A stretch of 64,000 nucleotides of DNA from Escherichia coli (GTDB taxonomy: Bacteria > Pseudomonadota > Gammaproteobacteria > Enterobacterales > Enterobacteriaceae), in the NCBI RefSeq assembly GCF_030384885.1, contig NZ_CP128613.1. One strand, written 5' to 3'. Shown here in pieces: positions 4,467 through 55,437 of this stretch. Both the position numbers and the translations under genes were made by a program. Under the pieces are notes generated by a model. That model ran no database searches, was not told the origin of the DNA, and saw only the letters and a list, made by a program, of their open reading frames with translations. Numbering within the stretch: position 1 is the stretch's first letter; each line of letters begins with the position of its first letter.

Positions 4467-5681
4467 TTACCAGTTCCACAATGTGCCATCTTCCAGTCGT
4501 GCGACGGGGAGATACGCCGGGTCATACGGATATTTCGCCGCCAGTTTCTCATCGAAAGAAATACCCAGCCCCGGTTCATCGCCTGGGTGCATATAACCTT
4601 CATCGAAGCGCCAGCTGTGCGGGAAGACTTCAAGCATTTGTTCGGAATAGCCCATGTACTCCTGAACACCAAAGTTTGGCACCCAGAGGTCAAAATGCAG
4701 CGCCGCCGCATGACAAACAGGCGATAAATCTGAAGGGCCATGCGAACCGGTACGTACCTGATAAAGCGATGCAAAATCGGCAATCCGTCGCATCCCGGTA
4801 ATGCCGCCTGCATGGGTAATCGTCGTGCGAATATAGTCAATCAGCTGCTCTTCGATTAACTGCTTGCAGTCCCAGATACTGTTAAACACTTCACCGACCG
4901 CAATCGGCGTCACAGTATGCTGGCGAATCAGACGAAAACATTCCTGGTTCTCGGCAGGCGTCGGATCTTCCATCCAGAACAGGCGGTAATCCTCTATGCT
5001 CTTCCCAAAGCGTGCCGCTTCGATAGGAGTCAGGCGATGGTGCATGTCATGCAACAGATGTTCGTTAAAACCGAACTTATTACGCACCGCTTCAAATAAC
5101 TTCGGTGTAAAATCGAGATACTTTTCTGAAGACCACAAATGCTCTTCCGGCCACAGGCCTTTGGTTGCCGGTTCATACGCCAGTCCTTTGCCCTTCGCCA
5201 GGCCATAAGTGGTTTGCATACCCGGTACACCGCACTGCACACGAATCGCCTTAAAGCCCATCTGCTGGTGCTTTGCATAGTCTTCAAGGACTTCATCAAT
5301 CGTGCGCCCGGTGGTGTGGCAATAAACCATCACGCCTTCACGAGAAGCCCCACCAAGCAGTTGATACAATGGCATATTTGCCGCTTTGGCTTTGATATCC
5401 CACAACGCCATATCAATGGCAGAAATGGCCGACATCGTGACGGGGCCACGTCGCCAGTAAGCACCTTTATAAAAGAATTGCCAGATATCTTCAATACGGC
5501 TGGCATCGCGGCCAATTAATTGTGGACAAAGATGATCTTTCAGATAAGAAGCGACCGACAATTCGCGACCATTTAATGTGGCATCTCCCAATCCACAAAG
5601 TCCGCTTGCAGTGGTTATTTTAAGCGTAACGAAATTACGTCCTGGGCAAGTAACAAAAACATCTGCAGCAATAATTTTCAT
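4467..5681 (-). CDS. Enolase-superfamily sugar-acid dehydratase (mannonate dehydratase / RspA-like)
   Basis: Translation [59 protein letters not shown]...; start set at ATG 5679-5681 preceded by AGGAGA; the track ORF extends upstream to 5741. Confidence 0.85.
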
Positions 5682-31535: not shown

Positions 31536-31808
31536 AGGAAAAGCTGAAGGGCGTCAACCGAAAAATGACCAATGATGGTGAGGAAAAATCAGGGAAGATG
31601 AAAAAAATTCAGGATAAAGGCCAAAGTTCCTCGTACCTGAACATGTGGAATATACCTCATTTAAGATGATATTTATTTGTTTAATTATTTTTTCTATTAA
31701 CCGGTGCAACGAGTGTTAAAGCGTGTAATTTTAGGATTATATCAATAGTCACGGTTATACAAACAGTGATAATTTATGAAATAATTTTATTTACCAGAGG
31801 AATAGCGC

Positions 31809-32783
31809 ATGTATCTTAATACTCAAGTTCAATATAATAAGTTAAATAAAGATGAAAAAAAGATCCTGTTGTTACAAAAGCTAGCCCATTTAACTGATTT
31901 TACTTTTGACAGAATAGAGACATTTTCAGCATTTGGACAATCTACTGAAACAGGTGTTTTTAAATATAAAGATGGCAATGAATTTGTTGTTGTCCCCGGG
32001 GATACAGTAATATTAGGGTGGGATGCCAGTCTCAATAATATGGATGGTCCGACAAAACAAGAATTTGAAGAGATGTTGGAACCAGAAGGTTTAGATTTGA
32101 ATAATTATCTCACCGACTCTTGCACACCTGTCAGGAAGGTTACAATTTCCCCGATGCTGGTTGAAAGAAACGTTCACGCCGAACCAAGTTGGAAGGAAGT
32201 ATCTCTTACGGACCCCCGCATCACAGAGAACAGCATGCTGCAAAAATTTCTGTCTGATTATATGGAAAAAATTAATCCTGGAGTTCACGAATTAAACGCA
32301 AGATTGAGATTACAATATATAGATGGGGATTTATTTGCACAAATATATGAATCAATTAGCTATGATGAGTTACTTCAAAATATCCAAAGCAATAGTTTTG
32401 ATCTTCCGAGCGAAGATGAATGGGAATATTTATGTGGCGGTGGTTCCAGGACACTCTGGCGCTGGGGGAATAATTTCGACTATCAAATGAAAATCCCATT
32501 TATTACTTCAGAAGAACCAACAACCTGGGATATAGAATGGCCTAATCAGTTTGGGTTGCAGATTGCATTTGATCCCTATCTTCAGGAAATTATTAATGAT
32601 AAAGATATTCTTCTGAAAGGTGGCGATGGTGGGTGCAATCTCTGCGGAGGTGCTAATGTTGTATTAGGATTCTTGCCTGTGGCAACTTATTACAAAGGAT
32701 ATAATAAACATACGGACGAATTAGAATATATGGATGACATTGGAGACAATTATACTTCTTATCGCAGAATAATTCGTTTATGA
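31809..32783 (+). CDS. Hypothetical protein, AT-rich gene; weak FGE-sulfatase (SUMF1)-like motif
   Basis: 324 aa ORF with AGAGGA RBS; motif LPSEDEWEYLCGGGSRTLWRWGNNFD resembles the FGE-domain EWEY...GG core; no other FGE signatures recognised. Confidence 0.6.
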   Translation: MYLNTQVQYNKLNKDEKKILLLQKLAHLTDFTFDRIETFSAFGQSTETGVFKYKDGNEFVVVPGDTVILGWDASLNNMDGPTKQEFEEMLEPEGLDLNNYLTDSCTPVRKVTISPMLVERNVHAEPSWKEVSLTDPRITENSMLQKFLSDYMEKINPGVHELNARLRLQYIDGDLFAQIYESISYDELLQNIQSNSFDLPSEDEWEYLCGGGSRTLWRWGNNFDYQMKIPFITSEEPTTWDIEWPNQFGLQIAFDPYLQEIINDKDILLKGGDGGCNLCGGANVVLGFLPVATYYKGYNKHTDELEYMDDIGDNYTSYRRIIRL

Positions 32784-32864
32784 GTAAAAATTATATTTCA
32801 GGACAAGAAGTTATGCTCGAGTCAAGCTAATGAATTGCTTAACGCAAGGAATAAAAACGTATTG

Positions 32865-34346
32865 ATGAACACTGGGAATTTCGAGTCGATACAAATCATG
32901 ATCGCCGCGCAAGAGTGGCGTAGCCTGCCGCTGCATCTGCGTTTGTATCAGGCTTTTCGTCAGTTGGTGATTTCTGGCGCGTTGTCTGATGGCGCAAAAC
33001 TGCCGTCCGCTCGCGCACTGGCCCAGCAACTGCACCTTTCCAGAGATACCATCGAAAATGCCTATTCCCAGCTCCACCGCGACGGTTTTATGGCTCGCAG
33101 GCAGGGGGCCGGGAGTTTCGCCAGCCGCCAGGGGATACCGCATATTCAGGGCCAGCATGCGCAACCACCCTCGCCCGGACAAGTACCGGCTTTAAGCGCT
33201 CGCTGGCAGCCAATTGCCGATCGCGCAGTCTCTTTCGATGCCCGCCAGATGCAGACCTTTACGCTTGGCCTGCCGGAAACGCGAAACTTCCCGCTAAACA
33301 TTTGGCAGAACTTTTCCCGCCAGATCCAACGTGAGCAGGCGCATACGCTGATGTTAAATAGCGATCCGCAGGGCGAGCCACAGCTGCGCCAGCAAATTGC
33401 GCATTACCTTAATTTTGAACGCGGCGCGAAGGTAGATGCCGGGCAGATTGTGATTGTCAGCGGCGCACGGCAGGCGTTCTGGCTGTGCGGGCAACTGCTG
33501 GCAGAGGCCGGACAGTCGGTGGCGATGGAAAATCCGGGCTATCCCGGCGCGCGTCAGGCGTTTTCTGCCGCACAGCTTAATCTTCTTCCCGTTGAAGTGG
33601 ATGACGCCGGGATCCGGGTGGATAAACTGCCGCCCGCGCCGCTGGTTTACGTCACGCCCTCGCACCAGTTTCCTTCCGGTCATTTGCTCACGCTGGCGCG
33701 GCGTCATGCCCTGATTGCCTGGGCGCAGGCGCACAATGCATGGATTATCGAAGACGACTACGACAGCGAATTTCACTACACCAGCGCGCCCGTCGCCTGT
33801 CTGCAAGGGTTAGACTGCGAGCAACGCACCCTGTATGTCGGCACTTTCAGCAAAACGCTCTATCCCGGCCTGCGCATCGGTTATCTGGTGGTGCCGACGT
33901 CGCTGGCTGCGCACTTTGCCGCCGCGCGTAATTTGCTTGATGGCGCAACGCCTGCGTTATCCCAACTAACGCTGGCGCGATTTATCGAGTCCGGTCATTT
34001 TGCCGCCCATATTCGCAACATGCGCAGTATGTACGCAGTGCGACAGGCGAGCCTGGCAGAGGCTATTCATCAACACTTAAGTGAATGGGTCACGCCAGTG
34101 GTGACATCCGGTGGGTTACAAATGCCCTGCTGGCTGCATGAAGGTATTGATGAGCAACAGACGCTAAATGCCGCGCGCCGCGCCGGGTTAAACATCGCCG
34201 GAATGCGCCAGTTCTGGCTGACGCACCCCGCGCCCGCGGGCTGGCTGCTGGGATTTGCCGCCTTTACCCCCTACGAGATTGAACAGGGCGTCAAGCGTCT
34301 GCGGGCTGCATTATGCACTGAAAACGTGCGCCCAGCCGGGTCATAA
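32865..34346 (+). CDS. MocR/GntR-family regulator with fused PLP aminotransferase-like domain
   Basis: N-terminal GntR HTH (…LPSARALAQQLHLSRDTIENAYSQLHRDGFMARRQGAGSFAS…) and large C-terminal fold-type-I-like domain; start ambiguous (TTG 32835, ATG 32865 or 32898). Confidence 0.8.
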   Translation: MNTGNFESIQIMIAAQEWRSLPLHLRLYQAFRQLVISGALSDGAKLPSARALAQQLHLSRDTIENAYSQLHRDGFMARRQGAGSFASRQGIPHIQGQHAQPPSPGQVPALSARWQPIADRAVSFDARQMQTFTLGLPETRNFPLNIWQNFSRQIQREQAHTLMLNSDPQGEPQLRQQIAHYLNFERGAKVDAGQIVIVSGARQAFWLCGQLLAEAGQSVAMENPGYPGARQAFSAAQLNLLPVEVDDAGIRVDKLPPAPLVYVTPSHQFPSGHLLTLARRHALIAWAQAHNAWIIEDDYDSEFHYTSAPVACLQGLDCEQRTLYVGTFSKTLYPGLRIGYLVVPTSLAAHFAAARNLLDGATPALSQLTLARFIESGHFAAHIRNMRSMYAVRQASLAEAIHQHLSEWVTPVVTSGGLQMPCWLHEGIDEQQTLNAARRAGLNIAGMRQFWLTHPAPAGWLLGFAAFTPYEIEQGVKRLRAALCTENVRPAGS

Positions 34347-35397
34347 TCTCATACGGGATGGTGTTGCAGGCAGCGGCAACCTGTTCCAGCGTCTGGCCTG
34401 CGCCAATAAATTCCACCTTATCGCCCGCTGTCGGCGTGACGGCGCTGGCATCGACCATAAAGCTGTCCATACAAACCCGCCCCAATACCGGTAACCGCAC
34501 GCCGCGCCAGCATACGCCCGCCGGAGGACGCATATTTCGCGGAACGCCATCCGCGTAACCCGCGGATATCGTAGCGATACGCAGCGGACGCGTGGCGGTA
34601 ATCGTACTGCCATAGCCAACTGGCGTTCCCGCCGGGACATCCTGCACGCGCAGAATAGTTAGCGTCAGCGTAAAAGCCGGTTTTAGCGGCCTGGAAAACC
34701 ACGGCTGGGCGACGCCAAACAGCGCAATCCCCGGACGGCAGAGATCTTCCCGCCAACCTGGTTGCAAAAACATTCCGCAGGAGTTCGCCAGCGAAAATCG
34801 GCTGCTGGGGAAAACCGTTTTTGCCTGCTGGAATAGCGCGTGTTGCGCCACATTTAACGCATGATCCGGCCTGTCGGCGTTCGCCAGATGGCTGATGATA
34901 TAGTCCGGCGCAGGCCAGTTACGCTCACGAAATATCGCCGCCAGACGCATCAGTTGTTGCGGCATCACGCCCAGCCGCGACATACCGGAATCGAGCTGGA
35001 TCATCACCGCACGCCGCTGCTGGCGCGTTTCCAGTAACGTAAGCCACGCCATCACCTGGTCAATGGAATTGAGCAATGGCGTGATCTGCTGCGCGTAACA
35101 ATACGCCATCGCCTCCGGCATAACCCCATTAAGCACTACCACCATCGCATCAGTGGGCAGGATTTTACGCAGCGCCACGCCCTCCGAAAGCTGTGCCACA
35201 AAAAAGATCCGGCAGTTCGCCGCATACAGGGCGGGCGCAATCGCCTCCGCCCCCAGACCATAGGCATTGGCTTTCAACACCGCGCCACATTGCGCAGGGG
35301 CAACATGGCGCGCCAGCGTGCGATAATTATCGACGATGGCGGCGAGATTGACGCACATAACGCCGCACGCCGCCTGGATTTCAGTAGAAGTCATCAT
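34291..35397 (-). CDS. Alanine racemase-family PLP enzyme (fold type III)
   Basis: PLP-lysine motif AVLKANAYGLGA and C-terminal GRVCMDSFMVD motif; start ATG overlaps the stop of the upstream SHMT-like gene (ATGA). Confidence 0.85.
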   Translation of the reverse strand: MMTSTEIQAACGVMCVNLAAIVDNYRTLARHVAPAQCGAVLKANAYGLGAEAIAPALYAANCRIFFVAQLSEGVALRKILPTDAMVVVLNGVMPEAMAYCYAQQITPLLNSIDQVMAWLTLLETRQQRRAVMIQLDSGMSRLGVMPQQLMRLAAIFRERNWPAPDYIISHLANADRPDHALNVAQHALFQQAKTVFPSSRFSLANSCGMFLQPGWREDLCRPGIALFGVAQPWFSRPLKPAFTLTLTILRVQDVPAGTPVGYGSTITATRPLRIATISAGYADGVPRNMRPPAGVCWRGVRLPVLGRVCMDSFMVDASAVTPTAGDKVEFIGAGQTLEQVAAACNTIPYEIMTRLGARFQCIMQPADA

Positions 35398-36632
35398 TGA
35401 TAAGACAACGGGTAGCGGTTGGTTAGTTGTATTACTTTTTGCTCAATATCGGCGCAAATGCCTGCGATATCTGACGAGTTGATGGCGAAAATGATTTCAC
35501 TTATCCAGTCAGCAATAAGCACAAAATCATCCGCCTTCATCCCACGCGTGGTGCAGGCCGCGCTGCCAATACGGACCCCGGAGGTAATCGACGGCGGCTG
35601 CGGATCGCCCGGCAGGGTGTTTTTATTGACCGTGATCCCCGCCAGTTCGAGAAAGTACTCCACCTGTGCGCCGGTTAACCCCTGCGGGCGCAGGTCGATA
35701 ATCCCCAGATGGCAGTCGGTGCCGCCCGTTAACAGCGTCAGACCGCGCTGCGCCAGTTGCTGGCACATCGCCTGCGCATTGTCGATAACCTACCCGGCGT
35801 AACGTTTAAATTCTGGTTGTAATGCCTCGCCAAGCGCCACCGCTTTCGCCGCGATAACGTGCATCAACGGCCCGCCCTGCAAACCGGGAAAGATGGCGCT
35901 GTCGATTTTTTTCGCAAGCCTGGCGTCATTGGTGAGGATCATGCCGCCGCGCGGCCCGCGCAACGTTTTATGCGTGGTGGTGGTGACCACATCAGCATAC
36001 GCCAGCGGCGAAGGAAAACAGCCGCCCGCCACCAGCCCGGCAAAGTGCGCCATATCCACCAGCAAAATGGCATCAACGGCATCGGCAATGCGGCGAAAAC
36101 GGGCAAAATCATAGTGGCGTGGATAAGCCGATCCTCCGGCAATAATTAACCGTGGGCGCTCGCGTAGCGCGATCATCTCGACCTCATCCATATCAATCAG
36201 GCCACTATGGGCATCGACGCCATAGTGAAAGGCGTTAAACCATTTGCCGGATTGATTGACCGGAGAACCGTGCGTGAGATGCCCGCCGCATTGCAGGCTC
36301 ATGCCAAGAATTTTGTCGCCGGGCTTCAGCAACGCCAGATAGACCGCCTGATTCGCCTGGCTGCCGGAGTGAGGCTGCACATTGACGTAACGCGCGCCAA
36401 AGAGCTGCTGCGCGCGGGTTATCGCCAGCATCTCAACCTCATCAATAAACTTACAGCCGCCGTAATAGCGATGCTGGTAATAACCTTCGGCGTATTTATT
36501 GGTTAACACCGACCCCTGCGCCGCGAGAACGGCGGGGCTTACGAAATTCTCCGAGGCAATCAGTTCCAGCGACTGCTGCTGGCGCTGTTGCTCCTGGTTA
36601 ATCAATGCAAAAAGTGGATCGTTATTTATCAT
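35394..36632 (-). pseudogene. Serine hydroxymethyltransferase (GlyA)-like gene interrupted by an in-frame TAG at 35790-35792
   Basis: N-terminal ORF (…[31 protein letters not shown]…[14 protein letters not shown]…PEFKRYAG*) and C-terminal ORF (VIDNAQAM…TSGVRIGSAA…) are in the same frame, separated only by TAG where GlyA has Gln. Confidence 0.75.
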
Positions 36633-36864
36633 GCGCTTCCCCCGCAAATTCATCATGCGATGATTTTCGCAGGGAAAACCTCGTCCGCACCCTGCCACTT
36701 TTTAGACTGAGCGCAGACCACCTATGTCGTTTTACTTAAAAGAAGAGGGAAGAAGGCTCCAGGCATCTCCATATGCGATTCTGGTTGGTAATACATCATA
36801 TTCCAGCTGCTCTTATCCGCCTACGTTATTGCATATACGGATAAGGCAGCCTCAATACGTACTT

Positions 36865-38430
36865 TTACTTGATATCTTTCACGCGCATACCGTTGATCTG
36901 TTCATCCGTGATGGTATTACCCGCTTTAAAGTAATCAACCACCGCGTGATAAACGTAATAACCGCCCGTCGTATTGCGCGCTTTACCCTCGGTAAACGCG
37001 GTAAAACCATCTCCACCATCAGCAAGGAAACTCTGAGTGGCAATGTGGTAAACCGTCGCATCTTCAATCGGTTCGCCATTCAGAGTCAGCGAGATAACCC
37101 GCTGACCAACCGGCTTGCTGCTGTCGTACTTCATTTCCAGGCCTTTCGATACCTGTAAAACGCCATTACTTAAACTTGCGCCGTGTTCCATCAAACTGCG
37201 TAATTGTTTACCCGTGAGTTCCATCGTCACCAGTTCGTTGGGGAACGGGAAGGTACTGATGACGCCACCCATCGTAATTGCACCCGCCGGGATCTCATTG
37301 CGGATACCGCCAGAGTTGGTTAACGCCAACTGGGTATTTTTACCCGCCGCTGCCAGCAAAGCGTCCGCCGCCAGATTCCCGAGAGAAGCCGATTCACCAT
37401 AGGCACGTTTCAATTCAACTGGCGATTGCGCCACCGTTTGCTGCACGACTTCATCCAGCTTTTTATTCCAACTATCAATCACCTGTTTTGTTTGCGGATC
37501 GGGCTTCCACTCGTCGGCGTAAAGGGTTTTAAGCTCGAAGTTTTTCACCGTAAAAGTGTGCGGCTTCTCTTTGTAGTCTAGAACCAGTTTACCCACATCA
37601 ATCCCGCCGCTGTCAGTGGAGAGGATTAACGTATTGCCGACTTTAATCGGTTCCGGCGTACCCACATGTGCATGCCCGGTGATCAAAATATCCAGCCCTT
37701 TCACCTGACTTGCCGTCTGAATATCTTTATCCAGTGCGCGGCGCACATCTGTGCCCCCCATACTGGACTGGCGGGCCGGAACACCTTCGTGAATCAGCGC
37801 AACGGTCAAATCAACCTTGCCTTTGAGTTCATCGATATAACGTTGTAGCCATTTAATTTCATCACGCGCCTCAATACCCACTCGCGTTGCCGCAGATACC
37901 GTATCATTAAAGGCAAATACACCGTGCAAACCAATCACGCCAATTTTCACGCCGTCTTTTTCAATGATGGTATAGGGCTTATCCCAGAATGATTTACTGC
38001 TGTTCTGATAAAAAACATTACCCTGCACAATCGGGAATTTTGCCTGACTCAACTGTAATAACGTATTGTCCCAGCCGTGATCAAATTCATGATTACCTAT
38101 AGTGGCCGCATCGAACGGCATGGTATTCATAATATCGATAATCGCCTTGCCTTTAGTCAGGCTGCTAATATACGGCCCGGTAAAATAGTCACCCGCATCA
38201 AAAAACCAGGTCGCTTTGTTTTTAGCTTTTTCTTGTTTAACAAGCGTAGTGATATTTGCCCAGCCGCCAATATCTCGTTTACCGTCAGCAATCCACGGCA
38301 CTTTATAAGGCTCTACATGTGCATGGAGGTCGTTGGTATAAATGATGGTGACATCTTTGGCGCAAGCCCAAAACGGCAGTGTTAATGCGATACCCGCAGC
38401 AAGCATTTTAATTTTCATAAACAATCCCAT
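36865..38430 (-). CDS. UshA/CpdB-family periplasmic nucleotidase (paralog A)
   Basis: Signal peptide [20 protein letters not shown]; metallophosphatase motifs [26 protein letters not shown]; C-terminal 5'-nucleotidase-type domain (…[13 protein letters not shown]…). Confidence 0.85.
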
Positions 38431-38550
38431 CCAGTGAGATAAAGGATTGCTACATTACGTTCTGAAAGGCTTTTTTATGTGAGAATACTCACATCCAGAG
38501 GCGATAACTGTAGGACAAAATCAACGACCTTATGAAATCGTTGGTGATAT

Positions 38551-39678
38551 ATGTCAAATCTGTTTGCGATTAATGTCTGTAAAACGTTCGGTTGTCGAAA
38601 TTTGGGATTGGCCTCATCGGAAGATTACAGTTGGCCAGACTATAAACTGGGTTTTCCGGCACTGCACTGCCAGGCATGCGGAAGTTACCCCCCTTTGTTT
38701 GATGAACAACAATTTCGTGACTGGTTGTCAGTTCACATGACTGCGTGTGCCATAGAAACAGGGCATTTTTGTCCATCATGCTATTGTAAAGAAAAGATTT
38801 TTTATGGCCACAACCCGCAGGGAACACAACGCGTTCAATGCCGTTCATGCAAAAAAGTCTGGACTCCGAAACAGCAGCCAGCAAGAGAAATTACGTATCC
38901 CCAGTCCATTGAAACCGTTCAACTGTTCATGCCCTTTCAAGGAGCCAGCGCAGTACAAAAGCTCTATGTTTTAGTCAGTCTTGACGCCACTCGTGGCAAC
39001 ATCCTTCATCTCTCCACGAATTATACGCAACATCAGACAGGAGACAGTCTGCGGTACAGTTACAGAGGCAATACAGAACCAACTGAGCACCATAGCGATA
39101 TTGCGCAGAGGGTAGATATGCGTGAAGCACAATTCTTGCGCCGGAGCCAGTTCGATGAAATTCAGTATGGCAGTGCTGTGCTCAAGCGCAACGGCAAGGG
39201 AGCCATACTACGCCCGGTTATCACGGCACACGGGCATTTCAGAATACTGAAAATCCGCTTTCCACATGTCAAAACGCATATCATTTCACACGAATGTTTT
39301 CTGAGAGGCGCAATTATTACAGCCTGGGCAGATCAGTTCCGCCAACAACAAGGCGAACTTTGGTTCGTAGAGGAAGAAATCAGCGACCGTAATGCTGATA
39401 TTCCCTGGCATTTTCAGGGAACGACATACCATGGTTGGTGGCAAAATCAGTGGCAACGCTGGGGGCAGGGGAATAACAGCAAGATGGTCTGCCTGCTCAC
39501 AGGAGTCTCCTTAGAAAGGGGCGCAAATGTTTCTCTGGCAACCAGTCGTTGCTTTATCACATGGCTGACAGACCAACACGACTTTACCCAAAGCGCGTTA
39601 TTATCCGCAGGTCGCGTAACGAAAATGCTGACCTCACTGGCGTTAAAATACAATGAATCGCTCACTCCATCTTGTTAG
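38551..39678 (+). CDS. Hypothetical cysteine-rich protein with N-terminal zinc-ribbon motifs (transposase-like zinc ribbon?)
   Basis: 375 aa; C-x4-C, C-x2-C, C-x2-C…C-x2-C spacing including FYGHNPQGTQRVQCRSCKKVW, resembling IS1 InsA / IS1595-type ribbons; remainder unassigned. Confidence 0.6.
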   Translation: MSNLFAINVCKTFGCRNLGLASSEDYSWPDYKLGFPALHCQACGSYPPLFDEQQFRDWLSVHMTACAIETGHFCPSCYCKEKIFYGHNPQGTQRVQCRSCKKVWTPKQQPAREITYPQSIETVQLFMPFQGASAVQKLYVLVSLDATRGNILHLSTNYTQHQTGDSLRYSYRGNTEPTEHHSDIAQRVDMREAQFLRRSQFDEIQYGSAVLKRNGKGAILRPVITAHGHFRILKIRFPHVKTHIISHECFLRGAIITAWADQFRQQQGELWFVEEEISDRNADIPWHFQGTTYHGWWQNQWQRWGQGNNSKMVCLLTGVSLERGANVSLATSRCFITWLTDQHDFTQSALLSAGRVTKMLTSLALKYNESLTPSC

Positions 39679-39907
39679 TCAATACACTCGACAAACGACC
39701 ATAAATTAATGGGATCACTATTTCTCATTTAATTAAATATATGAATGTATGACTGAAAAATATAATCACAGTCAATGTTTAATTAATAACATTATTTGTT
39801 ACTAAGATCACATAATACTTTCCTGACCTATGTTTACATAAAAATAAGACACGGTGTTCCTTTTATTTAAATAATTCAACCAATGTAACAACCCCTATCA
39901 AGGAGGG

Positions 39908-41461
39908 ATGATGAGAACTGTATTTACGACTTTATCAGTCATATTCAGCGTGATGTTTTCTCACAGTATACTAGCTCAGGACGTTACTATTTATTATACG
40001 AATGATATTCACGCACATGTCAATCCGGCAAAAATTCCCGCTGTTGATAAGAACAGACTTGTAGGTGGTATGGCTAATATTGCAGGCATCGTTAATGAAG
40101 CGAAGAAAAAAAACAAAGATGTCTTTTTCTTTGATGCAGGCGACTATTTTACCGGTCCGTATATCAGTACCCTGACCAAAGGTGAAGCTATTATTGATAT
40201 CATGAACACCATGCCCTTTGATGCGGTGTCCGTTGGTAATCACGAGTTCGATCACGGCGTGCCCAATATGGTATCTCAGTTATCAAAAGCAAAATTCCCC
40301 ATTCTGCTGGGAAATATTTACTACACCGATACAAATAAACCAGTTTGGGATCATCCGTGGACCATTATCGAAAAAGATGGTTTAAAGATTGGTGTGATTG
40401 GATTGCATGGTGCATTCGCTTTCTATGATACAGTCGCGGCAAAAGCACGTGAAGGCGTAGAAGCCAGAGACGAAATTAAATATTTAAATAAAGCACTTGC
40501 AGAATTAAAAGGTAAAGTCGACATTACCGTTTTGCTAATTCACGAAGGTGTTCCGGCGCGTCAATCAAGCTTTGGTAGTAAAGATGTGGAGCGGCTACTA
40601 CAGGCAGATATTGAGACAGCTAAAAAAGTGAATGGTGTTGATGTCTTAATTACCGGTCACGCACATGTCGGAACACCGCAACCAATAAAAGTTAATAACA
40701 CATTAATTGTATCTACCGATGCATACGGCACCGACATCGGAAAACTTGTGCTTGATTACAATCCGAAAACAAAGAAAATTGATAGTTATAATGGTGAGTT
40801 AATCACCATCTTTGCAGATCAATTTAAACCTGACACCATCGTTCAAAATACTATCGATAAATGGAGCATAAAGCTTAACAAAATAACACAGGAAGTTGTC
40901 GGCCATTCTCCCGTAGTTTTAACACGTGAGTATGGCAGTTCTTCTTCTACCGGTAACCTTATTCTAGATGCAATGATGGAAAAAACACCTGATGCCATTG
41001 CCGGATTTCAAAATAGCGGTGGGATGCGAGCTGATTTTCCTAAAGGTGATATCACACTGGGAGATGTTATTAGCACATTCCCCTTTAATAATGACCTCAT
41101 CGAGATGGATTTGACGGGCCGCGATCTCAAATCATTGATGACGCATGCAACCAATCTAACTAACGGTGTGTTACAGGTTTCAAAAAGCGTTGCGGTTGTC
41201 TATGACAGCAAAAAACCACTCAACCAACGGTTAATCTCTTTCACCATTAACGGCAAACCCGTGGAAGATAATCAAACATATCGTATTGCCACGCACTCCT
41301 TTTGTGCCAGTGGTGGTGACGGTTTTGAAGCATTTTTGAATGGAAAAAATGTGAAGACGATACCGGGAACAACCTCGGCGGAATCTATCATCGATTATTT
41401 CAAAAATCATAAACCTGTCACCCCAGACTTAACTAAACGAGTCATGGACGTCGCCAAATAA
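39908..41461 (+). CDS. UshA/CpdB-family periplasmic nucleotidase (paralog B, most divergent)
   Basis: Signal peptide, same metallophosphatase motif set ([26 protein letters not shown]); AGGAGG RBS at 39901. Confidence 0.85.
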   Translation: MMRTVFTTLSVIFSVMFSHSILAQDVTIYYTNDIHAHVNPAKIPAVDKNRLVGGMANIAGIVNEAKKKNKDVFFFDAGDYFTGPYISTLTKGEAIIDIMNTMPFDAVSVGNHEFDHGVPNMVSQLSKAKFPILLGNIYYTDTNKPVWDHPWTIIEKDGLKIGVIGLHGAFAFYDTVAAKAREGVEARDEIKYLNKALAELKGKVDITVLLIHEGVPARQSSFGSKDVERLLQADIETAKKVNGVDVLITGHAHVGTPQPIKVNNTLIVSTDAYGTDIGKLVLDYNPKTKKIDSYNGELITIFADQFKPDTIVQNTIDKWSIKLNKITQEVVGHSPVVLTREYGSSSSTGNLILDAMMEKTPDAIAGFQNSGGMRADFPKGDITLGDVISTFPFNNDLIEMDLTGRDLKSLMTHATNLTNGVLQVSKSVAVVYDSKKPLNQRLISFTINGKPVEDNQTYRIATHSFCASGGDGFEAFLNGKNVKTIPGTTSAESIIDYFKNHKPVTPDLTKRVMDVAK

Positions 41462-41495
41462 AATATCATTTATCAGTCTATTTATTTAACAAGGA

Positions 41496-43121
41496 ATGCG
41501 AATGAAAACAGTGCAGCGTACTTTACTTGCCGCAACATTGCTGACTATTTTTTCGGTCTCGGTCATGGCGCAGGATGTCACGATTATTTATACAAATGAT
41601 CTTCACGCTCATGTGGATTCTTATAAAGTGCCGTATATCGCAGACGGAAAACGCGACATTGGCGGCTTTGCCAATATATCTACTTTAGTAAAACAAGAGA
41701 AAGCGAAAAATAAAGCCACCTTTTATTTTGATGCTGGAGACTATTTCACCGGCCCTTATATCAGCAGTCTGACAAAGGGCGAAGCAATAATTGACATTAT
41801 GAATACCATGCCTTTTGACGCAGTATCAATCGGTAATCATGAGTTTGACCATGGCTGGGATAATGCCCTGCGACAATTAAGCAAAGCGAATTTTCCTGTT
41901 TTATTGGGCAATGTTTATCATAAAGAGAGTGAAAAACCCTTCTGGAACAAGCCCTACACCATCCTGGAAAAAGATGGCATCAAGATTGGTATTATTGGGC
42001 TACACGGCGTATTTGCATTTAATGATACGGTCTCGGAGCTCTCTCTCCAGGGACTCGATAATGACAATAATAACCGCTTTGATAAATCTTCCGAGACCCT
42101 TAAGAATCAGGGGATTGAAGCACGTGATGAAGTGAAGTATTTGCAGCATTATATCGACGAGTTACGTGATAAGGTTGACCTCACTGTGGCGCTGGTTCAT
42201 GAAGGCGTTCCGGCGCGTCAGTCCAGCATTGGCAATACAGATGTTAGACGCGCTCTTGATAAAGATATTCAAACCGCTAGCAAGGTGAAAGGATTGGATA
42301 TTCTGATTACCGGGCATGCCCACGTCGGAACGCCAGAACCAATCAAAGTCGGCAACACCTTAATCCTTTCGACTGATAGTGGCGGTATCGATATTGGTAA
42401 ATTAGTCCTTGATGTCAACCCTACAGCTCGTACCCATAAAATGAAGAGCTTTGAGCTGAAAACAGTTTATGCCGATGAATGGATACCCGATCCAACGACA
42501 CAAAAAGTTATCAATGGCTGGAATAAAAAACTGGCGGATATTGTACGCCAACCAGTGGGTGAATCATCGATTGCATTAACTCGCGCCTATGGTGAGTCAT
42601 CGCAACTAGGCAACCTGTTTACCGATGCAATGCTTGTCGCTGCTCCGACTGCACAGATTGCATTGATAAACTCCGGCAGCTTACGTGCGGATATAAATGC
42701 AGGCACGATTACCTTTGGCGACATTACCAGTACATTCCCCTTCAAGAATGAACTTACTGAAATGGATCTCAGCGGTAAGGATCTGCGTAACCTACTGGAA
42801 CACGGGGCATCGCTTACCAATGGCATCCTGCAAATGTCAAAAGGCGCAGAAATGCGCTATACCCCGCAGAAACCAGTAGGTCAGCGCATAGTATCTTTTA
42901 AAATTAATGGTGAAGAGATCGTTGATACGAATATTTACCATGTTGCAACAACGACTTTCCTTGCACTGGGGGGCGATGGTTTTCTGGCATTCAAAGAAGG
43001 GAAAAATGTTCAGGTCCGCGCCGGAAAAAACATGTCCGATGTCGTGATCGATTATTTGAAGAAAGGCCACAAGATTACGCCTGCACAGGTAAATGAAATG
43101 CGGGTGGACGTTAGCAAATAA
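41496..43121 (+). CDS. UshA/CpdB-family periplasmic nucleotidase (paralog C, with ~27 aa Asn/Asp-rich insert)
   Basis: Signal peptide; same motif set; insert ELSLQGLDNDNNNRFDKSSETLKNQG absent from paralogs A and B; real start probably ATG 41502. Confidence 0.85.
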   Translation: MRMKTVQRTLLAATLLTIFSVSVMAQDVTIIYTNDLHAHVDSYKVPYIADGKRDIGGFANISTLVKQEKAKNKATFYFDAGDYFTGPYISSLTKGEAIIDIMNTMPFDAVSIGNHEFDHGWDNALRQLSKANFPVLLGNVYHKESEKPFWNKPYTILEKDGIKIGIIGLHGVFAFNDTVSELSLQGLDNDNNNRFDKSSETLKNQGIEARDEVKYLQHYIDELRDKVDLTVALVHEGVPARQSSIGNTDVRRALDKDIQTASKVKGLDILITGHAHVGTPEPIKVGNTLILSTDSGGIDIGKLVLDVNPTARTHKMKSFELKTVYADEWIPDPTTQKVINGWNKKLADIVRQPVGESSIALTRAYGESSQLGNLFTDAMLVAAPTAQIALINSGSLRADINAGTITFGDITSTFPFKNELTEMDLSGKDLRNLLEHGASLTNGILQMSKGAEMRYTPQKPVGQRIVSFKINGEEIVDTNIYHVATTTFLALGGDGFLAFKEGKNVQVRAGKNMSDVVIDYLKKGHKITPAQVNEMRVDVSK

Positions 43122-43133
43122 TAAAAAAATTAT

Positions 43134-43165
43134 AATGCCATTCATTCACTGAATGGCATTATTTT
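43134..43165 (+). terminator. Terminator-like hairpin after nucleotidase paralog C
   Basis: atgccattca-ttcac-tgaatggcat followed by T-rich tract. Confidence 0.5.
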
Positions 43166-43198
43166 CTCTAAATCAACAATAGATAATGAGATATATTT

Positions 43199-44059
43199 AT
43201 GTGTATAAAAAAGCACGGGATAGCTTTATCGATTCTATTAATACCTTGCATTGGAAACGCTCAGAAAATTAAAAGTGAGGAAGGCTGGTTACATCAAAGC
43301 TTGAATGTCATTGGTCGCACAGACTCTCGCTTTGGCCCAAGGCTGACTAACGACCTCTACCCTGAATATACTGTAGCAGGAAGAAAAGACTGGTTTGATT
43401 TTTATGGTTATGTTGATCTACCAAAATTCTTTGGCGTCGGCAGTCACTATGATGTTGGGATCTGGGATGAGGGCTCACCACTATTTACGGAAATAGAACC
43501 TCGGTTTTCCATTGACAAATTGACCGGATTAAATCTTGCGTTCGGCCCTTTTAAAGAATGGTTCATTGCAAACAACTATGTCTATGATATGGGTGACAAC
43601 CAGTCATCCCGGCAAAGTACATGGTATATGGGGCTTGGTACAGATATCGACACGGGTCTACCAATTAAGCTTTCTGCCAATATATACGCCAAGTATCAGT
43701 GGCAAAACTATGGTGCCGCTAATGAAAATGAATGGGACGGATATCGATTCAAAATAAAATATAGCATTCCTCTTACCCATTTATTCGGAGGGCGATTGGT
43801 ATACAATAGTTTTACTAACTTTGATTTTGGATCCGATCTTGCGGACAAATCACACAATAATAAACGAACCAGTAATGCTATTGCTTCAAGCCATATCCTT
43901 TCCCTGCTATATGAACACTGGAAATTTGCATTTACACTACGTTATTTTCACAACGGTGGACAATGGAATGCTGGGGAGAAAGTTAACTTCGGAGATGGTC
44001 CATTTGAATTAAAAAACACAGGATGGGGAACCTATACTACTATTGGTTATCAATTTTAA
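43199..44059 (+). CDS. Tsx-family nucleoside-specific outer-membrane channel paralog
   Basis: Signal peptide, C-terminal Phe; long colinear blocks matching Tsx as recalled (…KDWFDFYGY…[12 protein letters not shown]…[14 protein letters not shown]…[26 protein letters not shown]…). Confidence 0.85.
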
Positions 44060-49225: not shown

Positions 49226-50362
49226 TTACGAAAGCCCGCTCCCAGCAAGGACTGACGCCAGATACTTTCTGTCCATGGCTGCTTTTCGCATCTTACGTCT
49301 TAACCCTGCCTTGAATACCTTATCATTCGTTAAAATATTAATAGCGATGTGCCGTATCCCTGAAAATAATTCTGCGGCGTTTCCTCTTCGTATTTTGCAG
49401 TCGTCTTCATTCATTACCACGTCCAGACGCCAGTGCAGCTTATTCTCCACGTGCCAGTGGTTTCGGATTGCTGTGGCGAACTTTTCTGCGGTTAAATCAG
49501 CAGAACTGATATAATATCTGACCGTCATTTCTGGCTCTTTCTTTTGTTCTGCTATTATTGACCGAAAGGAGAATGCCACGCATAATTTCTTCAGTCCTTT
49601 CCATTCAAACGTGAAATCAATAAGTTCATCACGGACATCGCAAACAATATGAAGACGGATTTCTTCTCTGCCGTGACTCTTTTCACTCATTGCGTAACTG
49701 TCATGCTCTGGATTATTTAATTCTTTCAGCGGAAATTTTTCCTCGAAGGCTTTATTTAGCCGCCCCTGGTTTCCTTTTACAGCGAATACATAATCACCGC
49801 CCTGTTTTTGTATCTTCTCTGCAATATCTTTCTGGCAACCCATCGCATCAGTTGTGATGATTTTTCCTTTAATATCCAGCATGTTAAGAAGTTCAGGGAT
49901 AGCTGTAATTTCATTGGATTTCTCATCCGTCCTGATCTGTCCGATGACCAGACTGTGCATTGTTGAGAATGCACTAATGACATGAATCGCTCCCCTGCGG
50001 CGACTCTTGTCATAAGAATGCCGGAGTGTTTTTCCATCAATTGCGATGACGTCTTTATCATCTGAAGTATGGCAATCTCGCATCCAGTTAATAAAGCACT
50101 CGTGAAATTTTGAAGGACTGATACAGGATACAACTCTGGCGATGGTATCGTGAACAGGAATACCATTTTCAAAATCACCATATTGTTTTAAAAAATCGCG
50201 ATGTGCTTCCCCAAAATCCTCTATATGTTCCCAGCCTTCTGCACCAGAAATAACGGCGCAAATAGTCAACAGTAGAATATCCGATAATTTATGTTCCACT
50301 TTCCAGGTTTGTCTGTAATCGGGGATAATAGAAATATGTTCCATCAATTTTTTAAGTTCCAT
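49226..50362 (-). mobile_element. H-repeat-associated (ISAs1-family) transposase gene, intact ORF
   Basis: 378 aa, [59 protein letters not shown]... matches Rhs-associated H-rpt proteins as recalled; element ends not mapped. Confidence 0.8.
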
Positions 50363-50469: not shown

Positions 50470-50905
50470 TTTAGTACAAAAAAGCAGCGTTAAGTGAGTA
50501 GGCCACCGGAACCTCCCCGACAGCCTCTCGCAGAACCGTACGTGAAACTCTCGCTTCATACGGCTCCCGTCAGGCAAACGCGCTTCCTGGTCCTGCTTTC
50601 CAGTGGGCAAACAACTCCGGCTTCTCTTTTGACAGCCTTTCCATTAGCTGACACGCCTTCGTCTTTCTATACCGCAGGGTTTTATATTTCTTTCTCGCCC
50701 ACGCAATCAGCGTCAGATTAATATATCTGCATACTTTCTTCATCGCTGATTTGTGGTATCTCGCGTAATAATTCAGCCACCCCAATATTATCGGATTCAG
50801 CCACTTCGCAATATCTTCGAGACTCATCTCCACCCTGCGTCTGATCCACAGTTTCCTGAGTTTTCCAATCATGCCTTCGGGTTTACTCATCTCACTGTAT
50901 CTCAC
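50470..50905 (-). mobile_element. Group II intron 3' remnant: maturase C-terminal fragment plus domain V
   Basis: ORF fragment has maturase motif WLNPIILGWLNYYARY; just downstream, minus-strand 50566-50533 reads GAGCCGTATGAAGCGAGAGTTTCACGTACGGTTC, a 34-nt domain-V-type hairpin. Confidence 0.6.
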
Positions 50906-51111
50906 ATAGGATCAGATCTCGTCTGATCGTTCCCCCTGCGCTCACTACCATGGCTCTTTACCACAGCAGCCGGGGTTGTTTGGGACCGACTTCCGACAGC
51001 AGATCCCGGTGGGCCTGCCACCATCTCTTCACAAGCTTATGCTTATTACATGCAAAACGTCCCGTTTTGCATCTTTGTGCCTACGGCACACCGTGATCTT
51101 TCCCTGTCGGC

Positions 51112-51330
51112 ATGTTGACCACTGACGAATGGGGTAGTTACGCTAGAGAGTTACCAAAGGAGAAGCATCTGACTGGTAAGATTTTTACTCAGCATATTGA
51201 GCGTAACAATCTGACCCTGAGAACCCGAATCAAACGTCTGGCCCGCAGAACCATCTGTTTCTCGCGTTCTGTAGAACTTCATGAAAAAGTCATCGGTGCT
51301 TTTATCGAAAATATATGTTCTACTAATTGG
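51112..51330 (+). pseudogene. IS1-family InsB transposase C-terminal fragment
   Basis: …DEWGSYARELPKEKHLTGKIFTQHIERNNLTLRTRIKRLARRTICFSRSVELHEKVIG… parallels the InsB C-terminus (…[37 protein letters not shown]…); no N-terminal part present. Confidence 0.6.
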
Positions 51331-51395: not shown

Positions 51396-51755
51396 TTACC
51401 TCATTCTGCTTTTTTTTCTCAAATGACATATATTATATTTTACATCATATTCATAGGCATATGACATTCCCCCGCCCCCCATTATGTCATTGTGGGTTGA
51501 TGTTGGGCTTTCATAAAAAAATACATCTTTTTTTGAACTAGCATTAATTATATTTACTTTATATATTAAAATATTTTCTCCATCTGGAAATATTTTAGCC
51601 ACACAATATAAAGCAGCCAAATCCGAATTACTTAAAAATATATTGTCATCACTCATAACTCCAGCCATTAAATGACTGGAGACTAAAGCAAGGAAATAAC
51701 AACATTGTATTGCCTTCATTTTAATTACTCCCTTGCCTGATAATTGTAACTCCAT
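51396..51755 (-). CDS. Putative Rhs-toxin immunity protein (secreted/membrane-anchored); 3' end may be truncated by the IS1 fragment
   Basis: ORF directly downstream of and overlapping the Rhs C-terminal tip; internal start [21 protein letters not shown] looks like a signal peptide; AT-rich. Confidence 0.45.
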
Positions 51756-52275
51756 TCCCTTTAGCTTTGGGATTATATTTTAGATAGGTGTTATTTGGTG
51801 TTCCCAAGTAACTACTGTATTCTTTTTTTCCCATTCCATTCATATAAGAATTCGTTAAATCTTTGCTTGAAAAATTTAGACTATCATAAACATCATTTTC
51901 TTTTGTTACTTTATTTCCTTTATCGTCAGAGTAAAAACCGTGAGTGTGATAATCGCCTACTCTCTCTGAACCTTCAGGGCATTTTATATTTCGCAAGTCT
52001 ACACTATCATTATCATTTGAACTTATCGGATTCATGGGGAAATATTCACCTTGCTTCTTACATATTAGTCCACCATATTCTTTATTCTCGTTAATTGATT
52101 CTCCATTACACATTGCCAATGCAAATATTCCAATATCATCTATATTTTTTGATTTAAATTCATATAATCCTAATGGATCCATGCCATTCACCGGGCTCAG
52201 CGGATATGTATACAGGTTCCATCCCCCCTTCAGCCCAATCGGATCCTGAGTGATATACCGCCCCTGTAACCGTCC
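51721..52275 (-). pseudogene. Rhs core-end plus C-terminal toxin tip (RhsA-CT-like), detached from any intact rhs core
   Basis: Open frame reads [36 protein letters not shown]…; tip contains [16 protein letters not shown], resembling the K-12 RhsA C-terminal region as recalled. Confidence 0.6.
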
Positions 52276-52664
52276 TCACCGGGAAACAGGTGCTCAAAAT
52301 ACAGGCTTCTGCCGCCGTTATCACTGAGTATCAGAGTGTTATCGCGCAGCTGCAAGCGGATATCCGCAGGCATTTTCCAGCCGGGGCCGAGGCTCCCCAC
52401 CGGCGCGGGCGTTTTTGTCCGGTAACTGCTGTAGGTGCGGGAGAGGATGAACGGCAGCGGGCCGGGCAGGGCAAGGTCGGTTTCGCCGGGAAGGACCTTC
52501 GCACCGAGCAGCGGATTGACCGGATGGCCGGACGTCACCCCGCCGGGGCACACCGAACAGGCCACGCCGGTGGGGGCACCAATACGTACCCCGGCAGAAC
52601 CCTGGACAATGGGGCCACCATACTGCGTCATGTCGCCCTGACGCGCCGCCGGTTTTCCGCTCAT
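52230..52664 (-). pseudogene. Rhs N-terminal fragment (PAAR-like region), 144 codons then stop
   Basis: MSGKPAARQGDMTQYGGPIVQGSAGVRIGAPTGVACSVCPGG… matches Rhs N-termini; frame differs from the downstream core-end/CT frame. Confidence 0.7.
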
Positions 52665-52783
52665 CGTAAAATCCTTTTAAAATAAATAAGAACCAGAAGC
52701 CTAGCGCCAGTCAACAACAGGAAATGATAATGAGTTAACACCCCGGAATGTTTCAGAATTTATAAAAGGCAAATTACAGGCAC

Positions 52784-52811
52784 AAAAAAAGCGCCGTGCG
52801 GCGCTTTTTTC
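52784..52811 (-). terminator. rpmE rho-independent terminator
   Basis: aaaaaaagcgccg-tgc-ggcgcttttttc; on the minus strand the hairpin is followed by a T-run. Confidence 0.6.
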
Positions 52812-52823
52812 GGAAATCCGGTC

Positions 52824-53075
<252 letters not shown>

Positions 53076-53079
53076 CTAA

Positions 53080-55437
<2,358 letters not shown>

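Follow-up and report, generated by a model that had tools for sequence, protein, structure and literature searches.

The window, that is, the whole stretch of 64,000 nucleotides analysed here, is a piece of the Escherichia coli chromosome with the gene order priA, rpmE, a Rhs relic, an IS1 fragment, a group II intron, ISAs1 and yiiX. The small ORF downstream of the relic carries the product name 'RHS element protein dsORF-f3' at NCBI, and therefore the element is RhsF. The position between rpmE and yiiX, together with the dsORF-f3 gene, also identifies RhsF, by synteny and annotation in L001 and L002. We take RhsF to be part of the Rhs A-B-C-F subfamily in the nomenclature of the Hill laboratory, and the history of the element was reportedly set out by Wang, Zhao and Hill in J Bacteriol in 1998.

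Our reference was NZ_CP027579.1 of strain 2013C-4282 (L002 from here on), and L002 coordinates are positions in that reference stretch. Compared with it, the window shows 7 mismatches in 64 kb and two deletions, both of them within multicopy elements, namely the Rhs core and the group II intron. The intron junction lies at window 50876/50877. Strain 2013C-4282 has at the same site an intact RhsF of 1394 aa (WP_106907683.1). The features of the window that concern us are the following:

51112..51330, plus strand: IS1 transposase fragment bounding the Rhs element, its extent approximate (ORF translation)
51396..51719, minus strand: dsORF-f3, 107 aa, intact candidate cognate immunity gene (NCBI annotation, family alignment, linkage)
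51721..52170, minus strand: C-terminal tip of RhsF with a DUF4329 / Tox-JAB-2 domain, the TAA included (Pfam, AF2, Foldseek)
52171..52275, minus strand: kept 3' end of the Rhs core in the frame of the tip, with both DPxGL motifs (DPIGL...DPLGL) (translation)
52230..52664, minus strand: truncated rhsF 5' ORF of 144 codons, with a PAAR-like region and DUF6531 (NCBIfam RHS_core, Pfam)
52264..52266, minus strand: deletion junction with a 3-nt CAG microhomology, where L002 1996 is joined to 5238 (blastn against L002)
52665..52823, minus strand: rpmE-rhsF intergenic region, with the rpmE terminator, the native rhs upstream region and the ribosome-binding site AAAGGA 7 nt before the ATG

The intergenic region is co-linear and identical with the region upstream of intact rhsF in L002. 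At the other end, the IS1 fragment is annotated in L002 as a partial IS1 family transposase and is 100% identical there. Between them we found the combination that marks a Rhs element, a PxxxxDPxGL core end followed by an AT-rich variable tip and a small downstream ORF. The G+C content is 61-69% in the N-terminal piece versus 27-35% in the tip and dsORF-f3, and this contrast between N-terminal piece and tip is the classic Rhs pattern.

The deletion and its junction

The preliminary description of this DNA, made without database searches, reported a Rhs N-terminal ORF of 144 codons ending at 52230, and we found it at 52664..52230 on the minus strand. It matches the NCBIfam RHS_core profile (NF041261) with E=4.7e-85 over profile positions 1-139 of 1261, and Pfam DUF6531 with E=3.7e-19. 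The PAAR-like region that had been seen in it corresponds to a weak, partial PAAR match (Pfam E=0.037). The RHS_core score of the ORF stays below the curated whole-protein cut-off (2000 bits) because the protein is truncated. When it is compared with the N-terminus of intact RhsF, codons 1-133 turn out to be native and codons 134-144 to be out-of-frame read-through past the junction. The exact protein encoded by this ORF is on record as CAD6104945.1.

The core end had been placed in a second frame, from 52275 downward. It is found there; this frame opens right after the stop codon at 52278-52276 and ends at the TAA at 51723-51721. The last ~32 core-end codons are kept, and they are identical to the C-terminal region of intact RhsF.

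Alignment to the intact allele in this near-identical strain maps a single deletion, which agrees with the internally deleted Rhs element originally proposed; the same alignment confirms that N-terminus, core end, tip and downstream ORF are all kept. The missing core had been put at ~1200 residues. It is absent indeed, but the loss amounts to 3,241 bp (L002 1997-5237, from blastn and the junction sequences) or about 1,080 codons. This length is 3n+1 and the frame is shifted. The YD-repeat shell of a Rhs protein takes about 1,100 residues, and L002 1997-5237 is not present in the window; since the shell is deleted, we regard the element as a relic and not as a functional RHS core member.

A deletion within a multicopy element calls for caution, and it could be argued that the source strain has an intact rhsF and that the 3.2-kb loss is a mis-join or a collapse across the multicopy Rhs core. 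Seven mismatches and two deletions, both in multicopy elements, make up a pattern that misassembly can give. Furthermore, each rhs breakpoint is embedded in ~70-110 nt of perfect identity to the K-12 rhsA/B/C cores, and the junction was found in 0 of 5,426 complete E. coli genomes; a search of metagenome contigs with a 36-mer spanning it gave no match either. The same junction does occur on a draft contig (CAJGVI010000014.1 of GCA_904842275.1), over 7,789 nt at 100% identity. Further downstream this contig differs from the window, with a different internal deletion of the intron, and then it ends, so the intron region at least is assembly-dependent. Nevertheless, the identical junction is thereby found next to downstream sequence unlike that of the window, which speaks against an artefact. 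The microhomology is of 3 nt only, and k-mer graph assemblers would presumably need spanning reads to make such a join, while 3.2 kb is not bridgeable by short-insert scaffolding.

Moreover, analogous microhomology deletions of rhsF are present in finished genomes, although they differ from ours in size and endpoints. One of them removes L002 3070-5099 (2,043 bp with a 13-nt overlap) and is present in finished L001, L013, L015, L017 and L018; another one removes L002 4669-5185 (about 520 bp) and is present in finished L020. The assembly collection has 412 blocks with a stand-alone tip ORF of 153 aa. These finished genomes with different endpoints, together with the 412 blocks, indicate that such decay is real and frequent. 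We therefore consider an assembly artefact unlikely.

The toxin tip and the gene behind it

The C-terminal tip was borne out at the level of the toxin family, since a profile search gives Pfam DUF4329 (PF14220) with E=3.7e-16 over model positions 6-108 of 116. DUF4329 is Tox-JAB-2, a recognised family of polymorphic toxins in which E, H[ST]H, S and D are the conserved positions (PMC3482391). In the tip of the window, which is 100% identical to that of L002, the motif made up of E (EYGG), HTH and S..D (FSSKD) is intact. The tip of the window has all of the residues E34, H78, T79, H80, S104 and D107, which vary little or not at all among 63 homologues. The preliminary description had likened the tip motif to that of K-12 RhsA, which was a mistake: KCPTGTDRVAAYHTHG belongs to the tip of K-12 RhsD, and RhsB has a related one. 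K-12 RhsA can be discarded as a relative, its tip being unrelated and without the H[ST]H motif.

Regarding the structure, the AF2 model of the tip has a pLDDT of 93.2. When this model was compared with the PDB by Foldseek, the top 50 matches were JAMM/MPN+ enzymes or complexes, except one eIF3 MPN-core model, with probabilities of 0.96-1.0; the best JAMM/MPN fold matches had a probability of 1.0 and an E of about 2e-4. The search of solved structures with the tip sequence returned one chance match only (E=0.18). On this modelling, the tip is a predicted JAB/MPN-type metallohydrolase toxin. The toxin JAB clades have been argued to have no ubiquitin-tail tunnel and to be possible nucleases (PMC3482391). 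Later papers repeat the label 'RNase' for DUF4329; in those consulted here the label is a prediction, and none of them describes an assay of DUF4329 activity, target or compartment.

The downstream ORF had been listed as 51755..51396, overlapping the tip. The ORF is there, but the overlap disappears with the likely start, the ATG at 51719, which lies two bases after the tip stop with the Shine-Dalgarno sequence AAGGGAG 8 nt upstream and gives the product of 107 aa that NCBI annotates. The signal-peptide-like start that had been noticed in it recurs in the homologues, where the signal-like N-terminus is conserved down to 26-29% identity. All 7 members of the dsORF-f3 family, which is small, have an N-terminal signal-like segment, with a basic residue, a hydrophobic core of about 12-18 residues and small residues ahead of a putative cleavage site, and the family alignment also shows an invariant GGGG motif. 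For dsORF-f3 the Kyte-Doolittle maximum is 1.84 versus 0.32 for the cytoplasmic YibA, and there is no lipobox. In the AF2 model the signal segment is a detached helix of low confidence, followed by one helix and four strands.

The searches with dsORF-f3 placed it in no family other than its own. Pfam and NCBIfam gave no match, and Foldseek of the model against the PDB gave nothing significant. Against AFDB50 we obtained its own family, several PepSY matches and one 'NTF2 fold' at E=6e-3, which amount to a weak fold resemblance only. We rejected membership in Imm-NTF2-2 (PF15631), as there was no Pfam match even at E<=10 and hhalign against YbbC/YhhH gave a probability of 0.5%. By eye, SDDNIFL of dsORF-f3 resembles SDENIIF of YbbC/YhhH, and the GGxx..E.D region is similar. 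Homology with the signal-less ORFs behind the DUF4329 toxins of Acinetobacter and Limnobaculum was likewise rejected (hhalign probability 0.3%, E=0.2). A similar G.G..Y.YE.D...MR C-terminus can be seen in those ORFs and in dsORF-f3.

The gene had been called a putative immunity gene, and linkage supports this: in the four contexts examined (the window, L010, L011 and L012) the gene of the dsORF-f3 family stands directly behind a RhsF-type DUF4329 tip (4/4). Toxin tip and dsORF-f3 partner also diverge together, at 72% and 48% identity. As a candidate cognate immunity protein, dsORF-f3 is thus well supported by conserved linkage. It had further been considered that the toxin might act in the cell envelope, and here only a part of the idea stood. 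It suits only the E. coli-type pairs, as the DUF4329 partners in Acinetobacter, Limnobaculum and Tenacibaculum are without signal peptides.

Interpretation of the relic

The account that we consider probable is that the locus is the relic of a RhsF polymorphic-toxin element, which suffered a recent deletion and lost its delivery, and whose intact immunity gene is possibly still protective. One recent microhomology-mediated deletion of 3,241 bp would have taken away nearly all of the YD-repeat shell and put what follows out of frame, so that the native promoter would now yield only a PAAR/DUF6531 stub of 144 residues. The tip, no longer fused to the delivery shell, would not be loadable onto the type VI secretion spike, and therefore the locus would be dead as a weapon; delivery of the toxin after the loss of the Rhs shell appears implausible. 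On the other side of the pair, dsORF-f3 has its own ribosome-binding site and, if transcribed, could provide a residual immunity and protect the cell from the RhsF-type toxin of the many E. coli with an intact element.

The intactness of the candidate immunity gene should be read with care. The copy in the window does not differ from that of the intact relative, so it may be intact for no other reason than that the deletion is recent. Furthermore, in 5 of 10 sampled strains with a disrupted rhsF, dsORF-f3 is frameshifted to 78 aa, which means that retention of the immunity gene is not generally enforced.

A different reading would be that the tip is made in the cell from an internal start, on an internal or read-through transcript, and works together with dsORF-f3 as a TA-like or regulatory module, independent of the type VI secretion system. 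The tip lies in an open frame of 185 codons with two possible internal starts, GTG 52191 and ATG 52182, and a weak GGTGA upstream of the ATG; the 153-aa tip ORF is called by gene callers in many genomes. Precedents exist as well: in EHEC, internal promoters near the 3' ends of rhs genes express the C-terminal domain and the immunity gene (PMC7618764), and Salmonella Rhs elements have been reported as type II TA-like modules (PMC7043789). However, we found no strong ribosome-binding site or promoter for such a product, and the promoter scan of the locus returned 5 promoter-like matches versus 4.7 expected, that is, the chance level. The N-terminus of dsORF-f3 suggests export, and in that case the protein would be unable to neutralise a toxin produced in the cytoplasm. 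A tip with cytoplasmic toxicity would then kill the cell, and one that acts in the periplasm would do no harm in the cytoplasm. Moreover, many strains with an intact 153-aa tip ORF have a frameshifted dsORF-f3, which argues that the stand-alone tip is non-toxic or unexpressed. We judge such a module improbable.

Least credible is a short effector, a deliverable, shell-less protein of ~320 aa in which a ribosomal frameshift at the junction would join the stub with PAAR and DUF6531 to the core end and tip. The frames do overlap across 52230-52275, where a +1 shift would give the fusion, and shell-less PAAR-toxin fusions exist among DUF4329 proteins (PF05488 + PF14220), but direct reading of the overlap reveals neither a slippery sequence nor any known frameshift signal, PAAR is matched only in part, and the junction is an accidental deletion product that the complete genomes do not contain, all of which makes this idea scarcely tenable.

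The relic of RhsF, as preferred here, is of little weight by itself, since it adds a further decayed allele to those of an annotated Rhs locus. This locus is common and already known, the element is a decay product of the usual kind, and E. coli loci with Rhs pseudogenes and relics have been documented (PMC2935791). It has a minor value as a clean and very recent deletion, whose flanks show 100% identity to the intact parent allele, and an intact dsORF-f3 beside a broken rhsF offers a natural test case for 'immunity-only' protection.

More general is the question of what these toxins do. A single chromosomal copy of the module formed by tip and dsORF-f3 is carried by 2,164 of the 5,426 complete E. 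coli genomes. The Tox-JAB-2/DUF4329 family is present in about 40% of these genomes, and the signal-like E. coli partner proteins fit poorly with its usual 'RNase' label. Tentatively, and with considerable doubt, we would suggest that the E. coli Tox-JAB-2 tips (RhsF, RhsB and RhsD) might be periplasmic JAMM-type metallo-(iso)peptidases or amidases rather than RNases, and that relics might persist as exported immunity-only loci. This reading comes from the partners, because two families between which no relationship was detected, dsORF-f3 on the one hand and YbbC/YhhH (PF15631) on the other, both have signal- or lipobox-like N-termini. If it were true, RhsF relics would protect as 'immunity-only' loci against the roughly 40% of E. 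coli with the RhsF tip module.

Comparison with known systems

The closest system is the RhsF of NZ_CP027579.1, which occupies the same rpmE–yiiX site and in which the 5' 400 nt, the core end, the tip, dsORF-f3 and the IS1 fragment are 100% identical to the window; it differs in retaining the 3,241 bp of core with an unshifted frame. Other deleted rhsF alleles, in OW1E2 (NZ_CP067245.1), CP027675.1 and CP007391.1, are found at the same locus and arose by the same kind of event. Their parts are also the same: the 5' piece as a pseudogene, the core end and tip as a stand-alone ORF, dsORF-f3 and IS1. They differ in breakpoints and sizes, and many of these strains have a dsORF-f3 frameshifted to 78 aa, while that of the window is intact.

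The K-12 pairs RhsD-YbbC and RhsB-YhhH are like RhsF in having DUF4329 tips with the E...HTH...S..D motif, and YbbC and YhhH are, like dsORF-f3, small downstream ORFs that start with a signal- or lipobox-like hydrophobic segment. However, the K-12 RhsD and RhsB tips share only 31-35% identity with the RhsF tip, and in RhsF-type tips, unlike in these, about 20 inserted residues stand between HTHG and FS..D. The partners also differ, as YbbC and YhhH belong to Imm-NTF2-2 (PF15631), the published immunity family of Tox-JAB-2, where dsORF-f3 is not filed.

With the JAMM/MPN+ zinc isopeptidases (AMSH/Sst2, CSN5, Rpn11) the tip shares the predicted fold and the E/HxH/S/D metal-site motif, although sequence identity is only 12-16% and the TM about 0.45-0.5.

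The 'RhsF/RhsFI' of a 2025 NAR paper (PMC7618764) should not be confused with the element described here, as that name, given under another scheme, stands for another locus (ECs0604, S-loop 44), whose tip is unrelated; it serves here only as a precedent for internal promoters. Finally, orphan Rhs/CDI toxin-immunity modules and the pairs of Rhs C-terminal domain and immunity gene that are expressed from internal promoters (PMC3150448, PMC7043789, PMC7618764) also consist of a tip and an immunity gene without a delivery domain. The module of the window differs from them in its place, since it lies in its original position behind the deleted core and not in a downstream orphan array.

Architecture and identity of the rhsF relic

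The minus strand carries the remains of an Rhs element, in three reading frames:

52664-52230, minus strand: 144-codon ORF, 5' piece of rhsF, with RHS_core, DUF6531 and weak PAAR matches
From after the stop codon 52278-52276 to the stop at 51723-51721, minus strand: second frame, core end and tip (DUF4329)
51719 (ATG) to 51396, minus strand: downstream ORF, dsORF-f3, 107 residues

The preliminary description had read an Rhs N-terminal ORF ending at 52230 and, in another frame from 52275, a core end followed by a C-terminal toxin tip, and both are present. The former matches profile positions 1-139 of the 1261 of NCBIfam RHS_core (E=4.7e-85), and in Pfam it matches DUF6531 (E=3.7e-19) and, weakly, PAAR; the tip matches the toxin family DUF4329 (E=3.7e-16). 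Furthermore, the 5' piece has a G+C content of 61-69%, against 27-35% across the tip and the downstream ORF, which is the classic drop between Rhs core and tip. Given these profile matches and this drop, the ORFs are not chance ORFs.

In other genomes NCBI names the downstream ORF 'RHS element protein dsORF-f3', and therefore we take the locus to be the RhsF element of the Hill laboratory nomenclature. The DNA of the tip and dsORF-f3 forms a chromosomal module, present in single copy in 2,164 of the 5,426 complete E. coli genomes, including O157:H7, and most of these 2,164 have a co-linear full-length gene. The motif KCPTGTDRVAAYHTHG, assigned at first to K-12 RhsA, does exist, but in K-12 RhsD. 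The RhsB tip is related to that of RhsD, whereas the RhsA tip is unrelated, which discards RhsA as a relative.

DUF4329 is the Tox-JAB-2 clade in the account that Zhang et al. 2012 give of this family (PMC3482391), defined by a JAB fold on which E, H[ST]H, S and D are conserved. Across 63 diverse homologues, E34, H78, T79, H80, S104 and D107 vary little or not at all, and the tip in the window has all of them. Its AlphaFold2 model (pLDDT 93.2, pTM 0.89) was compared with the PDB by Foldseek, and the top matches were almost all JAMM/MPN+ isopeptidases (Sst2/AMSH, CSN5, Rpn11; probability 1.0, E about 2e-4, TM about 0.5).

The gene order on this E. coli chromosome is priA, rpmE, Rhs relic, IS1 fragment, group II intron remnant, ISAs1, yiiX, metJ. 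Upstream of rpmE lies, as expected, an L31 leader (53043-53095, minus strand; Rfam RF03157, 60 bits). Between the intron remnant and yiiX, the transposase gene of the ISAs1 family (H-repeat type) is intact (49226-50362, minus strand, 378 aa); strain OW1E2 has no copy at the corresponding position, and in K-12 the ISAs1-family yhhI occupies the equivalent place beside rhsB. OW1E2 also lacks around 12.6 kb between metF and metL (window ~31,800-44,050), these two genes being adjacent there. According to the 2013C-4282 annotation, this stretch has three paralogous metallophosphatase/5'-nucleotidase genes, a Tsx-like channel, an alanine racemase, an aminotransferase-family regulator and a serine hydroxymethyltransferase pseudogene.

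The deletion and its possible origin in assembly

Strain 2013C-4282 (NZ_CP027579.1) differs from the whole window by 7 mismatches and one gap over 64 kb, and at the same site it has an intact RhsF of 1394 aa. Aligned with this allele (locus L002), the window lacks L002 1997-5237, that is, 3,241 bp (3n+1), and the ends meet at a 3-nt CAG microhomology (window 52264-52266). In the 5' remnant the first 133 codons are native and the next 11 are out of frame, and the 3' remnant keeps the last ~32 core codons, among them both DPxGL motifs, as well as the whole tip and dsORF-f3, all retained parts being 100% identical to the intact allele. Thus the core is missing as proposed, although the loss is of ~1,080 codons and not of around 1200 residues.

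The junction was absent from the 5,426 complete E. coli genomes (0/5,426) and from the metagenome contigs searched; it is a rare strain-level allele. The 144-aa junction protein has an exact match, CAD6104945.1, on contig CAJGVI010000014.1 (GCA_904842275.1), which is 100% identical to the window across 7,789 nt, junction included.

We consider the rhsF deletion probably real. An assembly artefact could have produced it, since both rhs breakpoints lie inside runs of 70-110 nt identical to the K-12 rhsA/B/C cores, and the sole further difference between the window and 2013C-4282 is also in a multicopy element, the group II intron: a 1,288-bp deletion with its junction at 50876/50877 and a 2-nt overlap. 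Moreover, CAJGVI010000014.1 has a different intron deletion (L002 6868-7681, 6-nt GCAGAG overlap), after which the contig ends; either closely related strains have lost different parts of the intron, or the assembly is wrong in this region. However, a k-mer graph assembly would need spanning reads to join a 3-nt overlap, the same junction stands on CAJGVI010000014.1, whose downstream sequence departs from that of the window, and analogous rhsF deletions with other endpoints occur in finished genomes (L002 3070-5099 with a 13-nt overlap in at least 5 genomes; L002 4669-5185 in another). An artefact is therefore improbable. In addition, a stand-alone 153-aa tip ORF was found in 412 blocks of the assembly collection, so rhsF disruption is common.

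As for the intron itself (window 50493-51100, between the IS1 fragment and ISAs1), most of ltrA falls within the lost 1,288 bp, and Rfam recognises a D1-D4 piece (50905-51022) and a D5/D6 piece (50493-50568).

dsORF-f3 as a candidate immunity gene

The downstream ORF had been described as overlapping, with a signal-peptide-like start. The signal-like N-terminus holds across the family, but dsORF-f3 begins 2 nt after the stop of the tip and thus abuts it without overlap, with a good Shine-Dalgarno sequence, AAGGGAG, 8 nt upstream of ATG 51719. It matched no Pfam or NCBIfam family. An exhaustive search found a small family reaching down to 26-29% identity, and in all of its members the N-terminus is first basic and then hydrophobic, GGGG is invariant, a Cys is conserved and MR or MK stands at the C-terminus.

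In all four genomic contexts examined (the window and loci L010, L011 and L012) a gene of this family lies directly behind an RhsF-type DUF4329 tip. In L012 the Rhs tip is intact and 72% identical and its partner 48% identical, and in L011 an orphan, frameshifted tip precedes the gene. Because this linkage is conserved and the pairs co-diverge, there is good evidence from sequence comparison for dsORF-f3 as the putative cognate immunity gene, in line with the role first suggested for it.

L010 (83-972, enterobacterial Logan contig ERR14949685_246) is an independent Rhs relic with the same architecture: a PAAR/DUF6531 stub of 116 aa, only the C-terminal half of DUF4329 in another frame, the catalytic Glu being gone, and an intact homologue of dsORF-f3, P0071, with an identity of 29-33% according to alignment or HMMER. 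Clearly, the toxin was destroyed here and the partner gene survives.

The published Tox-JAB-2 partner family is Imm-NTF2-2 (PF15631: YbbC, YhhH), and a relation of dsORF-f3 to it was not demonstrable (hhalign probability 0.5%). The dsORF-f3 model (pLDDT 73.5) has a detached N-terminal helix, followed by a single helix that packs against four strands; its structure search gave weak PepSY/NTF2/cystatin-like resemblances and nothing stronger.

Regarding the fate of the relic, the YD-repeat shell is gone and the frame is shifted, so that by the established architecture of Rhs effectors encapsulation of the tip and its mounting on the secretion spike would be impossible, and the locus would be dead as a weapon. 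Expression of dsORF-f3 might continue, either from the rhs promoter by read-through or from an internal promoter, the latter having precedents in other Rhs loci (PMC7618764, PMC7043789). A scan of the relic gave promoter-like matches at chance level.

However, immunity is not universally maintained, because in 5 of the 10 sampled genomes with a disrupted rhsF (stand-alone tip ORF) dsORF-f3 is frameshifted to 78 aa. The frameshift is shared by L015, L017, L018, L019 and L022 (3464-3700 in each locus; FFYESP to FFMKAQ), and in a sixth genome the gene ends at 50 aa. Thus dsORF-f3 decays too, in a sizeable lineage, and its intactness in the window may merely reflect a recent deletion, as the flanking sequence shows no difference from the intact allele.

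Site of toxin action and comparison with known systems

Two K-12 genes of PF15631, downstream of the RhsB and RhsD DUF4329 tips, also have lipobox- or signal-like hydrophobic N-termini, which bear on where Tox-JAB-2 toxins act:

L007 (K-12 rhsB locus) 4900-5283: yhhH, beside the RhsB tip, hydrophobic start
L009 (K-12 rhsD locus) 5082-5450: ybbC, beside the RhsD tip, lipobox-like ...FFILFAC|NE

PF15631 is not described as exported in the passages of the 2012 survey covered here. The N-termini of the dsORF-f3 family, YbbC and YhhH favour the view that the E. coli pairs have a target in the envelope. Nevertheless, the envelope action first proposed was over-general, because the ORFs downstream of the DUF4329 toxins of Acinetobacter baumannii, Limnobaculum and Tenacibaculum have no signal peptides, and action in the periplasm is at best evenly balanced. 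Two of these signal-less partners (A. baumannii L023 3391-3717 and Limnobaculum L026 2999-3316) are 32% identical, and their C-termini (G.G..Y..E.D...MR) resemble the end of dsORF-f3; homology with dsORF-f3 was unsupported by profile comparison (E=0.2).

The preliminary description was essentially right, save that it named RhsA instead of RhsD, put the loss too high and drew the envelope inference too widely. Annotation already exists for the RhsF element, the tip family and the downstream gene, all of them very common, and E. coli Rhs pseudogenes and relics are well documented (PMC2935791). The sole wider interest is in the label of these common toxins: nuclease activity was a guess in the treatment of Tox-JAB-2 by Zhang et al. 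(PMC3482391), later papers reuse 'RNase' for DUF4329, those covered here describing no assay, and the exported-looking partners in E. coli sit uneasily with it.
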